Assembly: GCA_047602405.1 (NCBI GenBank)
Contig: JASGHJ010000001.1
Coordinates: forward strand, 1,952,001 to 2,016,000
DNA: 64,000 nt
Source of the DNA: Anaeromyxobacteraceae bacterium
GTDB lineage: Bacteria > Myxococcota > Myxococcia > Myxococcales > Anaeromyxobacteraceae
Direction: 5' to 3'
Shown in pieces: positions 4,591 to 12,410 of the stretch; position 1 is the first letter of the stretch, and every line of letters starts with the position of its first letter. The notes under the pieces were generated by a model. That model saw only the letters and a list, made by a program, of their open reading frames with translations. It was not told the origin of the DNA and made no database searches. Made by a program: the position numbers and the translations under genes.

Positions 4591-4995
4591 ATGGCGAACG
4601 GGCAGCCCAGCGGGCGCGATCTCTCGGTCGGGAACGACGTCGTCGACGGAGAGCACGGCGTCCAGGTGCAGCTCGTGGACGCCCTGCAGGCCGCGCTCTC
4701 CGGCGGCAGCGACCGCGCCGCCGCGGGCGAGCTCCTCGACCGCCTCCTCGTCTTCAGCGACATGCACTTCGGGAGCGAGGAGCTCCTGATGCGCCTCCAC
4801 TCCTACCCGCGCTACCGCGTGCACGTCGACGAGCACCACCGCCTGCTCGACACCCTCCGCGAGCTCGGCGGCCGCATCGGCCGCGGCGACGGCGCGGGGC
4901 CGCTCGTCGAGGACCTCCGCCGCTGGCTCGTCGGGCACATCACGGGCATGGACCGCGACTTCGCGAACCACGCCCGGGAGTTCCCGGGGGCGTGA
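4591..4995 (+). CDS. Bacteriohemerythrin
   Basis: DGEH...HFGSEE...HVDEH...HITGMD di-iron ligand pattern; GAGGAG RBS. Confidence 0.9.
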   Translation: MANGQPSGRDLSVGNDVVDGEHGVQVQLVDALQAALSGGSDRAAAGELLDRLLVFSDMHFGSEELLMRLHSYPRYRVHVDEHHRLLDTLRELGGRIGRGDGAGPLVEDLRRWLVGHITGMDRDFANHAREFPGA

Positions 4996-5044
4996 GGTCC
5001 TCGCGCCAGTCGGTGTCCCGGTGACCGCTCTGCCTGCAAGAACC

Positions 5045-5096
5045 GCTCGTCCTGAGCGTAGGCCTGCCGCAGGCAGGCCGTAGTCGAAGGACGAGC
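5045..5096. repeat. REP-like branched palindrome
   Basis: GCTCGTCCT...AGGACGAGC outer stem with inner GGCCTGCC-GCA-GGCAGGCC; CCTGAGC...GTCGAAGG layout is typical of proteobacterial/myxobacterial REPs. Confidence 0.6.
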
Positions 5097-5180
5097 CCCC
5101 GTCGGCAGACGTCACCCTGGGGGCTCGACGCGCCCCCGCGACGCCGGCCGGCTGCGTCGGTCCGTGTATGGTGCAGACGC

Positions 5181-5771
5181 CCGGAACCGGGGCCGCTGCG
5201 ATCGTTCGGGCCGCGGCAGGCCTGCGGTTGAGTTGCGGGTGACGGCACAGCGCGCTTCGCGCGCCATGCCGTCACCCGCCCACATCCCTTGGCCTGCAAT
5301 CGCTAGGATCCTGGAGACGTGGAGAGCCCGACCTCCGCCGGCCGGCGCTGCGGGGGCACGTCTCGCCTCCGGGGCGTGGCGGACTGCGGTCGGCCGATGG
5401 TGCTGGGTGGCGAGTGATTGACTGATGGTGGAGAAGCTGCGGCGGGTGATGGATGCTGCAGATGAACGCGCAGCAGGTCGCCCAACGCCAACGCCACCCG
5501 GTCGGTCGCTGTGCGCAACACCACTCCATTAGTCGTTCATCAGCACCCGGCATCAACGGCCGACCGCAGGGCGCTACCCCCGAGAGCCAAACGGGCCTCC
5601 GCAGCAGCGCGCAGCGAGCGACGGGCGAGGTACCGTCTCCACGTCTCGCATTGCAGGCCAAGGAACCATCGCGCGAGGACGGCGCCGTGCGCGCAGCGCA
5701 CGACGCCGTCACGCGCACATGGTCCGCAGGCCTGCTGCACGATCACCGCCGTGGAACGGCAACGGTTCCGG
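5181..5771. repeat. ~590-bp imperfect inverted repeat (fold-back), centre ~5476
   Basis: Collinear complementary blocks 5181-89/5763-71, 5216-27/5724-35, 5287-300/5650-63, 5314-25/5636-47, 5384-96/5557-69. Confidence 0.85.
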
Positions 5772-5846
5772 CGATCTGTTCCGTCTCAAACCCGTCCGAG
5801 CAAGCGCTGTCGCGGAGGCCCGTTTGGCTCCCGCGGATACAGCTGC

Positions 5847-8800
5847 CTACGGCTTGCCGGACTTCTTCGGAGCAGGAGCAGTAACCGGTGCAGTAGCCGG
5901 TGCAGGTGCAGGAGCCGGTGCAGCGGTCGGTGCTGCCGACGCGGGAGGGAGCTTCGCGAGGCGGCGCTGCGCGAGGACGTGGGCGTCGGTCGGATCCGGG
6001 GCGCCGTCGACGGGCTCCGCCTGGACGCGGGCGTAGATGGCGCGGGCGGCGTCGGTGAGGCCGAAGCCCTCGGCGGTGCGGCCCACGACGTACCAGTCGG
6101 CGCCCTGCAGCGGGCGGGTGGGGCCGACCGAGCGGAGGAAGATCTCGCGGGCCTCGGCCGGGCGATCGAGCTCGGCGTAGACCGCGGCGAGCGTGTTGAG
6201 CGAGGCGTGGTTGTCGCGGCCGCGCTCCTGATCCACGGCGCGGCGGGCCCAGTCGAGGGCGGCGGGGGTGGCGCCGCCGCGGAAGAGCTCGAGCCAGGCG
6301 GCGTTGTTGTAGGCGAGCGGGGTCGCCTGGCCCGAGTCGATGAGCTGCCGCCACGTCGCGGCGGCGCCGTCGAGGTCGCCGGCCAGCAGCTGGGAGGCGC
6401 CCAGCGCGGAGAGGACCTCGGCGTCGCCCGGGAGGCGGGCGAGCATCGCCTGGCCCGCCTTCGCGAGGTCGGCGGGGCGCTTCAGGCGCTGGAGCGCCCA
6501 GGCCTTCGCCGCGAACGCGCTCCGCAGCGACGGATCCTCGGCGAGCAGCGCCTCGGCGGTGGAGAGCACGAGCTCCGCCTTGTCGGCGCTGCGCGCGGCG
6601 CGCACGAGGGCGAGCGCCACCGCGCGGCGCTCCGGGCCCGCGGGGGCCTTCGCGAGGAAGCCCTCGAGCGCCGGGATCGTGGCGCCCTTGCGGTCGGCGA
6701 AGGCGAGGAGCGCGCTCGCGGCGCGGCGGACCGCGTCGGCGTCGGGCGCGTCGCCGGCGAGCGGGCGCCAGAGCGGGGCGAGGATCGAGGTGGGCGAGGC
6801 GGGATCGGGATCGGGGCCCGCGTCCTCGCGGGCCCAGGTCACGAGGCGCGCGGCGGTGGCGAGGTCGCCCGCCTTCGCGCGCAGGAGCGCCTCGTCGGCG
6901 AGGATGGGCCAGGCGAGGTCGGTCGCGAGGAGCCGCACCTGCCCGCCCTCGCGCACGAGGTACGCGGTGGAGCCGCGCTCCGCGGGGGTGAACGGGAAGC
7001 GCATCCGGACCCGCAGGACCTTCGCGAGGTCGCCGTCGCGGGAGAGCTCGAGCCGCGAGAGGACGAGGTCGAGGAGCGCGTCCTTCGGCATGCCGGTCTC
7101 GTGCAGCGTCTGCTGCGCCGAGGCGACCGGCACGGGCAGGTTGGCGCGCAGGACGTCGGCGAGGTCGGAGGCGAGCACGCGCGGCGAGAGCAGGGGCGCG
7201 ATGGCCTTCATCGGCTGGTGCTCGGTGAGCGCCACGACGAAGAGCCGCTTCGCGAGCCTCTCCGCCTCGTCGCCCGCGTCGCGGGTCTTCTCCCACGGGC
7301 GGATCTTCGAGAAGTCGTCGGCCTGGGCGCGCAGCTCCGCGGCGTTCGGCGCGCCGCGGGCGGCCTCGCGCAGCAGCGCCGCCGCGACGTCGAAGCGGCG
7401 CAGCCGCACGAGCCACGGCGCGGCGCCGCGCAGCGCCTCGCGCCGGTCCTCGCCGAGCCCCTCCGCCTCCGCGGCGGCGCGCTCGGCGCCGTCGGAGGCC
7501 GCCACCGCCGCGACCAGCACCGCGTTCCGCTCGGCGCCGGCCTTCACGTCGCGGGCGAGCGCCCGCGCGTCGGCGAACCGGCCGGCCGAGAGGTCGGCGG
7601 CGGCGAAGGCCACGTCGGAGTCCTTGAAGGAGAGGTCGTCGCGCAGGGCGCGGTACTCCTCGAGGGCCGCCGGGAGGTCGGCGCTCGGGCCGTGGCGGGT
7701 GCCGTCGGCGCCGGTGGCGAGCAGCTCGGCGAGCGCGGCGCGGCCGCCCGCGTGGCTCGGGTCGAGCGTCCTCGCCTGCCGGTAGGCCGCGATCGCGCCG
7801 TCGCGATCGAAGCCCGGACCGTGGAGGCGGCCGACGGCGTCGTGCTCGAGCACGTAGCCGAGCACCCGGTGCGCCCACGCGCGCCGGGGTTCGAGCGCGA
7901 TCGCGTCGCGCGCGGCCAGCAGCGCCGCGTCGCCCATCCCGAGCTGCAGGAGGGCGACCGAGAGGTGCAGGCGGTGGGCGGCCTCGCGCGGGTGCGCGGC
8001 CGAGAGGCGCTTCAGCTCGGCGAGCCCCTCCTGGACCTGGCCCGCGGCGAGCAGCGCCGCGGCCGTCCGCTCGAGCTTCACCCGTGGGCCGTCGCCCGCG
8101 ACGACCTCGCGCGCGCGCTTCAGGAGCGCGGTCGCGTCCGCCGCCGGGAGGCGCCGCGCGCCGGTGTCGAACGAGAAGGTCGCGGTGATGGTGCCGTCGG
8201 CCTCCACCGCGAAGCGCCGGGTGTAGGTCGCGGGGCCGAACCGCTCGGTCCCCGACTCGGGCAGCGGCCGCGGCCGGAAGCCGTCGGGCGGGAACACCCG
8301 GTACCGGACCTCCCAGCGGTAGGCGAGGGGCAGGAGCAGGTCGGTCTTGCGGGGCGGAGGCGGGGGCGCGTCGGCGGCCTCGCCGTGCGGCACGACCGAG
8401 AGCAGCGGCTGGAAGATCGAGTCGGGCGTGACCGGCAGATCGGCCTCGTCGTCCTCGGTGAGGACCGCGGCGCTCTCGTCGGCCTCGACGCGGACCACGA
8501 GCGGGGCGGCGGGCTCGTCGGCCCCCTTCACGTCGGCGCCGAGGAAGGTCTCCGCCCGGAAGACGCCGAGCGCGTAGCGCTGGTCGACGTCCGGCCCGGC
8601 CTCGCCGCGGAAGCGCCGCTCGCCGTCGGCGAGGGCGCCGGTGAGGGTGCGGGTCTCGACGATGCGGCCGCGGCCGACGGTGGCGAGGTGGAGCTCCCGC
8701 ACGGTGACGGCGGCGTTGTCGGCCGACGTCGAGACCGGCGTCCGCGCGAGCTCCTTCGTGCCGGGCGCCGCGACGAGGGCGAGCTTCCCCTGGATCGGCG

Positions 8801-11918: not shown

Positions 11919-11993
11919 CGCCCCGGGCGGGCCTTGCGCGGCAGGGCGCGGCCCCGGAATGACCTCCCCGGGCCACCGGGGAGGGCCCGAGCG

Positions 11994-12410
11994 ATGACCG
12001 AGACCCACGCCTGGAACGCGCAGCTCGAACTCGGCCACGAGGCGATGGACCACGAGCACCACCTGCAGATCGCGCTGGTGTCCGCGTTCATCGAGGCCGT
12101 CGAGCAGGCCCGACCCGCGCTCGCGCGCCAGCTCGTCGACCAGCTCGAGCGCTACAGCGTGGTGCACTTCGGCTCGGAGGAGCTGCTCATGGACGCGACC
12201 GGCTACGCCGGCCGGGTCCGGCACGCGGGCGAGCACGCCGAGTTCCTCACCCAGATCCGCGGCCTCGCGGGCGACCTCGACGCGGGCGCGACCGACCCCG
12301 CCATCGCGAGCGCCATCGACCTGCGCGCCGCGCTCGCCGCGCACATGAACGAGGCGGACCGCCGCCTCGCCGGCCACGTCACGCCGCGGACGGTCGTCCG
12401 CGGGAGCTGA
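11994..12410 (+). CDS. Bacteriohemerythrin
   Basis: MDHEH...HFGSEE...HAGEH...HMNEAD. Confidence 0.88.
   Translation: MTETHAWNAQLELGHEAMDHEHHLQIALVSAFIEAVEQARPALARQLVDQLERYSVVHFGSEELLMDATGYAGRVRHAGEHAEFLTQIRGLAGDLDAGATDPAIASAIDLRAALAAHMNEADRRLAGHVTPRTVVRGS

Follow-up and report, generated by a model that had tools for sequence, protein, structure and literature searches.

How REP- and REPIN-type repeats get copied in vivo is a question still open, and the element described here bears on it. Among the closest described systems, the frame GTGG-GA-GC...GC-GA is common to the Pseudomonas REPs PF8-PF16 (PMC3686654, Table 1), GTAG-1 repeats carry an unpaired dinucleotide and a 3-bp tail (PMC3733652), and REPs are among the known targets of IS110-family elements (10.1101/2024.01.24.577089). 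In the window, by which we mean the whole stretch of 64,000 nucleotides that was analysed, we find a non-coding, two-armed palindromic repeat of ~750 bp with a left (L) and a right (R) arm of ~330 bp each, which is an oversized, orphan REPIN/BIME-like DNA repeat. It displays a REP-type foot and forms inverted, extragenic, hairpin-forming doublets; it lacks the short palindrome 3' of the foot, a cognate RAYT and the high copy number with singlets, so that it falls outside the REPINs in the strict sense. The repeat is real, undescribed and lineage-restricted, and no published account of it was found in the literature outside subscription papers and supplements.

The initial annotation had placed a palindrome at 5181-5771, in a gap without credible ORFs between two convergent genes. 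A crude gene caller agreed on the gap and on the orientation of the neighbours, placing no gene inside, and the palindrome itself stood; its boundaries did not, and alignment of the 16 genomic copies with their flanks, together with the orthologous site of a close relative, gave a homologous unit at about 5103-5845 whose outer ends are fuzzy to within ~10 bp. The perfect complementary blocks reported earlier (at least five, of 9-14 bp) were recovered as seven inverted blocks of 8-14 bp, five of them within 9-14 bp, centred on 5475-5481, and the mirrored arm hairpins were present at 5235-5279 and about 5671-5716. From the left, the unit comprises an outer REP-like motif with foot, 19-bp stem strand and GAC tail (5117-5142, + strand), whose foot reads CTGG in this copy and GTGG in most others; a central hairpin (5216-5300, +) with its apex at 5235-5279 and a C-GAA-G loop on the - strand; an inner inverted copy of the motif (5347-5372, -), which pairs with the outer one and has neither the GTGG foot nor the GAC tail; and an inner tail (5373-5432, +), where 5416-5428, homologous in position to an IS1111 target, has diverged in this copy and holds no insertion. 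A variable central spacer with short simple repeats follows (5433-5525, no strand assigned), without any meaningful match elsewhere in the genome, and then the right arm with its inner tail (5526-5579, -), inner motif copy (5580-5605, +), central hairpin (5650-5735, -; loop C-GCA-G on the + strand) and outer REP-like motif (5809-5834, -; foot GCGG). The cross-arm stem inspected at first is the product of the two inner tails. Outside the element proper, a short palindromic repeat of an Ssn/SRM-like type (5043-5096, +) abuts the L end. The left flanking gene (4591-4995, +) encodes a hemerythrin domain (TIGR02481, above cut-off), and the right one encodes a large protein, its 3' end (5847-6300, -) lying with the stop codon against the R end. 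This large gene is bracketed by two hemerythrin-like genes, 4591-4995 and 11934-12410, the second read from the ORF only; the ORF list also gives a hydrogenase small subunit with iron-sulfur genes at 451-2570 on the - strand, the hydrogenase ORF bearing an apparent frame shift near 1900-2200.

BLAST of the palindrome against its own genome (G000) revealed a dispersed family of 16 loci, where the pair is complete at 14 and internally deleted at one, and the last holds a solitary arm; a filtered nhmmer profile search of G000 added no further arms. The 32 aligned arms reach a maximum pairwise identity of 93.6%. Fifteen of the 16 loci lie in convergent gaps, compared with 860 of 5143 gaps genome-wide by the crude gene caller, and the solitary arm sits in a tandem gap. 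Long BLAST matches among 92 genomes of the family were confined to G000 and a close relative, G010; a motif search through 368 genomes of the class gave 26 matches in G000 and five in G010, with single two-mismatch matches in 13 others, at control level. Exact-pattern scans returned four loci on genome contigs (two from the G010 copy and two by chance) and five on metagenome contigs, all by chance, and no sequencing run in a word search contained half of the element's words. These searches went by sequence only, so that a diverged structural relative would escape them. The family is also present on sludge contigs, which are not independent since their loose ends match the G010 copies. The copies divide evenly between replichores as defined by KOPS-like skew (8 vs 8), and a replichore bias was discarded. 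As a separate observation, about 2.35 Mb carry no copy (G000 C2:3.37 Mb to the end plus C1:0-1.95 Mb), a region that holds the origin by KOPS-like skew if the two contigs are assumed to join; a largest gap of this size has roughly a 1% chance.

Comparison with G010 exposed turnover of the element. Thirteen orthologous sites were located there, with flanks 86-98% identical and sites i, j and k not included: one holds a full element, two hold partial ones (one of them inverted relative to the genes) and three hold stubs, while six are without trace and one is unclear. The window's own site is one of the stubs, the left motif being fused to the right end. Orthologous arms are 79-87% identical and come only 5th, 6th and 8th among 31 arms ordered by similarity, which indicates that copies are rewritten in place. 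At the six element-free sites neither a target-site duplication nor a sharp terminal repeat was seen, a comparison limited by intergenic divergence, and no excision or clean insertion event was observed.

The REP-like character of the family resides in a motif of ~26 bp at the outer end of each arm, with an inverted copy 230 nt inward and the central hairpin between the two. A GTGG foot precedes 20 of the 32 outer motifs, with most others one base off, and none of the 32 inner ones; the 12 non-GTGG feet include both of the window copy. In the same way, the tail reads GCGAC in 32/32 outer motifs, where it interrupts the stem, vs GCAGC in 32/32 inner ones. The frame GTGG-GA-GC...GC-GA of this motif is the one seen in the Pseudomonas REPs PF8-PF16. 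By itself the motif is a poor local palindrome that forms a weak local hairpin, its partner in the 19-bp stem being the inner copy 230 nt away. A loose version of the REP frame is not rare alone in this GC-rich genome (112 matches in G000 vs 238 in the reversed control). Terminal stutters occur at four loci of G000 and one of G010, and an end-motif profile detected no free singlets in G000. As for the cognate enzyme, G000 and G010 each gave 11 RAYT-like matches and none over the NF047646 cut-off of 80 bits, the best scoring 67.7 and 73.4 bits, respectively; the element borders none of the 21 Y1 loci checked (best E 0.83), and in four further genomes of the family the canonical RAYTs are associated with a different REP. 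G000 has 11 Y1-like loci in total; among its Y1-HUH genes are those at G000:C2:1013774, C2:2439561 and C2:1325570, at least two of which are bracketed by a ~20-bp terminal repeat unrelated to the element, in a TIRtron-like manner.

Our preferred reading, to which we give a probability of roughly 55%, is that the dispersed repeat acts as an oversized REPIN, a selfish sequence that a RAYT-type (HUH) nuclease would mobilise in the form of folded single-stranded DNA. The element would then be non-autonomous, and the nuclease that probably recognised it may since have been lost. An arm would fold once its strand becomes exposed at the replication fork, and the GTGG foot, the 19-bp stem and the GCGAC tail together would serve as the handle for the nuclease. 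The copied unit would be the L+R pair, and copies might afterwards be refreshed through the exchange of apex-containing blocks between them. Long palindromes of this kind would decay through internal deletion and be tolerated mainly in convergent gaps.

A different enzyme is suggested by the short repeat that abuts the L end in the window. This family counts ~230 genomic copies and none in the reversed control, and together with a small stand-alone GIY-YIG gene (G000:C1:1892872-1893087), flanked by tandem inward-pointing copies of it, looks by analogy like a putative Ssn/SRM-like system of Anaeromyxobacter. The long element could thus be a cargo or partner of Ssn, the small GIY-YIG protein, the SRM-like repeat being its true left boundary and an Ssn nick in single-stranded DNA 5' of that repeat starting the copying or exchange. 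The element does lie on the same 3' side of the short repeat as the GIY-YIG gene, two L arms contain the short repeat internally, and in G010 it is found at the L end in 6/6 sites with a trace of the element and 0/6 without. Moreover, SsnA cleaves single-stranded DNA just upstream of its repeat according to PMC11893778, where transposition by Ssn is put forward as a hypothesis and not demonstrated. We nevertheless consider this arrangement unlikely. An intact short repeat adjoins 4/16 loci of G000 (two by pattern and two by eye) vs 69/350 convergent gaps, which means no enrichment in this genome; no copy has it at both ends; GIY-YIG genes are found in 33 of 37 genomes of the genus and the element in two; and the short repeat may simply insert beside or into the L arm.

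One mobile gene does reside in the repeat. An IS110-family element of 1.49 kb (NF033542, 254 bits), with the PF01548 and PF02371 domains of a DEDD recombinase, occupies 4 of the 16 copies; all four genomic copies of this IS are inside the repeat and are at least 99.6% identical (L023 at G000:C2:1993989-1995464, and L021, L022 and L024). Each entered an arm tail at TGAA-CT-AACGG, around a CT core; three of them lie in L arms and the fourth in an R arm. The guest belongs to the IS1111 group as this is delimited in 10.1101/2024.01.24.577089, having the DEDD recombinase, subterminal inverted repeats, a core repeat and, in a long non-coding stretch downstream, RNA with guides that match the target, the guide-flank matches being judged by eye. 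Its downstream region folds with a z-score of -4.8, and an internal loop contains ATGAACT and CTGTTAG, the predicted left and right target guides, which match the arm tail. Among six related IS copies of other genomes, a different flank comes with a different left guide, again by eye; these relatives belong to loci L143-L152 and L157, and L148 sits in a GTAG-type REP. A role for the IS110 element as the transposase of the repeat was rejected, since this guest brings its own ends and CT core, enters either arm, is absent from G010 and has relatives at unrelated targets: the IS is a parasite of the repeat and not its mobiliser. In a GC-rich host, it also provides an IS1111 bridge-RNA/target pair that is natural and reprogrammed, within a group of related IS whose guides track their targets.

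How the copies are rewritten can be followed in the nested organisation of the arms. Four layers, i.e., the motif stem, a flanking A/B layer, the base and the middle of the central hairpin, were scored separately on the 5' and 3' sides of 32 arms. The alleles on both sides of these nested layers agree in 127/128 cases, even though the 32 arms show 10 layer combinations and each of the four possible allele pairings occurs for layers 2-3, 2-4 and 3-4. Segments that are allele-specific but unpaired move together with their partners, a linkage that would not be expected from template-switch 'perfecting'. Either the exchanged blocks contain the apex and end at mirror-image positions, or chimeras with mismatched sides arise and are quickly purged. 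A tentative and rather doubtful extension is that copies recombine while folded, a nuclease or recombinase treating the extruded hairpin as a duplex and swapping whole apical blocks at mirror-image positions to give onion-layer mosaics; if true, giant REP-like elements as a class would have an exchange mechanism that acts on the hairpin. Two other sources of variation were set aside. Apex flip-flop inversion, as in rolling-hairpin replication, does not fit with a single flipped apex among 32, and mutagenesis by a diversity-generating retroelement, considered for the multi-allelic columns, does not fit with a variation that is not adenine-specific. Reverse transcriptase genes were likewise rejected as its source, the eight matches being seven identical frames and a partial one, group II intron-like on inspection; the frames are 484 aa long (G000:C1:439597 and six more) and the partial one is at C1:1301199.

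Polarity is kept in the outermost layer: pairs set an L-type against an R-type arm, and the CAA motif type is present in 14/15 R arms vs 0/17 L arms. Such a strict polarity would suit the arms being the ends of a larger autonomous element that once had a gene in its spacer, the 750-bp copies being deletion derivatives. In line with this, the spacers vary freely in length (about 110-310 nt separate the conserved tail blocks, and more with the IS), and the spacer of copy a (G000:C1:2051594-2051617) has two GGGGTCAG motifs, a sequence given in PMC6006769 as the TIR consensus around subclass 2.1 Y1 genes and the TIRYT terminal consensus. On the other hand, no gene other than the guest IS1111, in 4/16 copies, was found between arms, and the spacers have no meaningful match elsewhere, so this origin seems improbable.

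In the preferred REPIN-like reading the mobilised unit would be folded DNA, and folding and covariation bear on whether structure is kept at the DNA or at the RNA level. The interval 5181-5771 folds far better than its shuffles (z-scores of -13.9 on the + strand and -13.2 on the - strand), and the two strands are alike in energy both for this interval (-384.9 vs -382.2 kcal/mol) and for the full element (-473.3 vs -473.9). A strand-specific G-U bias proposed from the sequence alone vanished on counting: with left arms aligned to reverse-complemented right arms, G-T:A-C mismatches were 30:27 over the whole arm of the window copy and 322:341 over the 15 two-arm copies, whose inner tails gave 63:60; the bias is confined to the 55-column inner tail of the window copy, with six G-T to one A-C. 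The rod conformation was not confirmed. RNA parameters and the true ends gave, on both strands, two self-paired arms joined by a short central stem, but DNA parameters still gave largely a rod on the + strand. Cross-arm pairing is barely copy-specific, as the complementarity of a left arm to its own right arm hardly exceeds that to foreign ones (0.685 vs 0.678, p 0.06; tail, p 0.14). The exception is found in the central hairpins: within one copy, those of the left and the right arm resemble each other beyond chance (0.805 vs 0.774, p 0.0014), which indicates some cross-arm homogenisation or conversion.

Covariation was found within each arm and not across the rod. The per-arm hairpin of ~260 nt comprises three helices and 61 pairs, with 92.7% of cells paired in 24 arms, compared with 31-51% in slid registers; in the same arms 17 of the 61 pairs show compensation, with 117 cells changed on both sides, a level that none of 500 shuffles reached, although the arms are related and these cells are not independent events. 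The outer-to-inner orientation folds better in 15/32 arms with RNA parameters and in 11/32 with DNA parameters, and mismatch bias is opposite in the main helices, with G-T:A-C of 92:44 in the outer stem and 14:51 in the central hairpin. The apical loop is C-GNA-G on the inner-to-outer strand in 26/32 arms, a loop type that is very stable in DNA. Altogether, arm covariation, the lack of strand preference, the opposed mismatch biases and the C-GNA-G loops favour a fold of the arm at the DNA level. Structural conservation concerns the arm and not the rod.

Two readings at the RNA level have to be weighed against these data. In the first, each arm would be a structured 3'-end RNA element of the gene running into it, one that stabilises the transcript or assists termination and that recombination has spread while selection on the RNA maintains it. 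Every arm, the solitary one included, faces the incoming gene in the same outer-to-inner sense, with the stop codon mostly within 10-180 bp, and in this sense G-T mismatches outnumber A-C ones in the outer stem; family pieces are also found in one metatranscriptome assembly, from a relative, on low-depth contigs unable to show transcription. Nevertheless, the central hairpin is biased the opposite way, whole arms fold without strand preference, no sigma70-like or terminator-like site was found at the element, and about half of the orthologous sites in G010 have lost it, so that a 3'-end function of this sort looks quite improbable. The second, a free-standing rod-shaped ncRNA transcribed from the + strand, could appeal to the very low folding energy, the 6:1 ratio in one tail and the weak within-copy likeness of central hairpins, but is very hard to sustain when the family has no G-U bias, rod pairing is not copy-specific overall, no promoter-like site or Rfam family was matched (sole match MIR8788, E 2.1) and the close relative's site is a stub. 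The undescribed large ncRNA of the initial annotation is therefore not supported, since its arms are copies of a dispersed repeat and their G-U and A-C counts are equal, and the palindrome is not a unique rod-shaped ncRNA. The alternative offered there, a MITE-like fold-back element, came close as regards a fold-back mobile element, but not as a classical MITE.

The value of this family lies in being fully listable, in recording recombination in its layers and in having a decaying sister population in G010, which together could separate folded-DNA exchange from gene conversion plus purging. Should the enzyme turn out not to be a RAYT, more proteins would be known to spread hairpin repeats.

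Set against known systems, the element resembles classical MITEs such as ERIC, RUP and NEMIS, as summarised in PMC3733652, in being non-coding, multi-copy, intergenic and fold-back, but it is longer than their 70-300 bp, with no sharp TIR or target duplication seen and no matching DDE transposase identified. The TIR repeats of TIRtrons and TIRYTs are described in PMC3733652 and PMC6006769 as long, partly self-complementary, dimeric and linked to Y1 genes, and G000 has such genes, whereas the element flanks none of the Y1 genes checked and is without the GGGGWSAS terminus. SRM/NTS repeats with Ssn, as presented in PMC11893778, are also single-stranded DNA hairpin repeats, and an SRM-like repeat often abuts the L end; SRMs measure 20-50 nt, however, the long arms carry no SRM sequence, and it is the short repeat, not the long element, that flanks an ssn-type gene. 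The IS1111 bridge/seekRNA elements of 10.1101/2024.01.24.577089 and PMC11187229 match the guest IS and not the repeat, with the particularity that the guide is here set to the tail of a giant hairpin element. The nearest relatives are the REPINs and BIMEs as portrayed in PMC3116915, PMC3733652, PMC3686654 and PMC8266576. Unlike these, the element spans ~750 bp with ~330-bp arms, compared with a spacing of 71 bp in the GI doublets of SBW25; its motif pairs with a partner 230 nt off and has no hairpin of its own, its inner copies have no foot or tail, it shows L/R polarity and concentric mosaicism, and it amounts to only 16 loci, with no free singlets and no cognate RAYT. What it shares with them is the extragenic pairing of inverted motifs, the hairpins, an outer foot of the GT(A/G)G type, a GTAG-1-like frame with a 3-bp tail, terminal tandem stutters, stubs and turnover at orthologous sites, and its use as a target by an IS110-family element.
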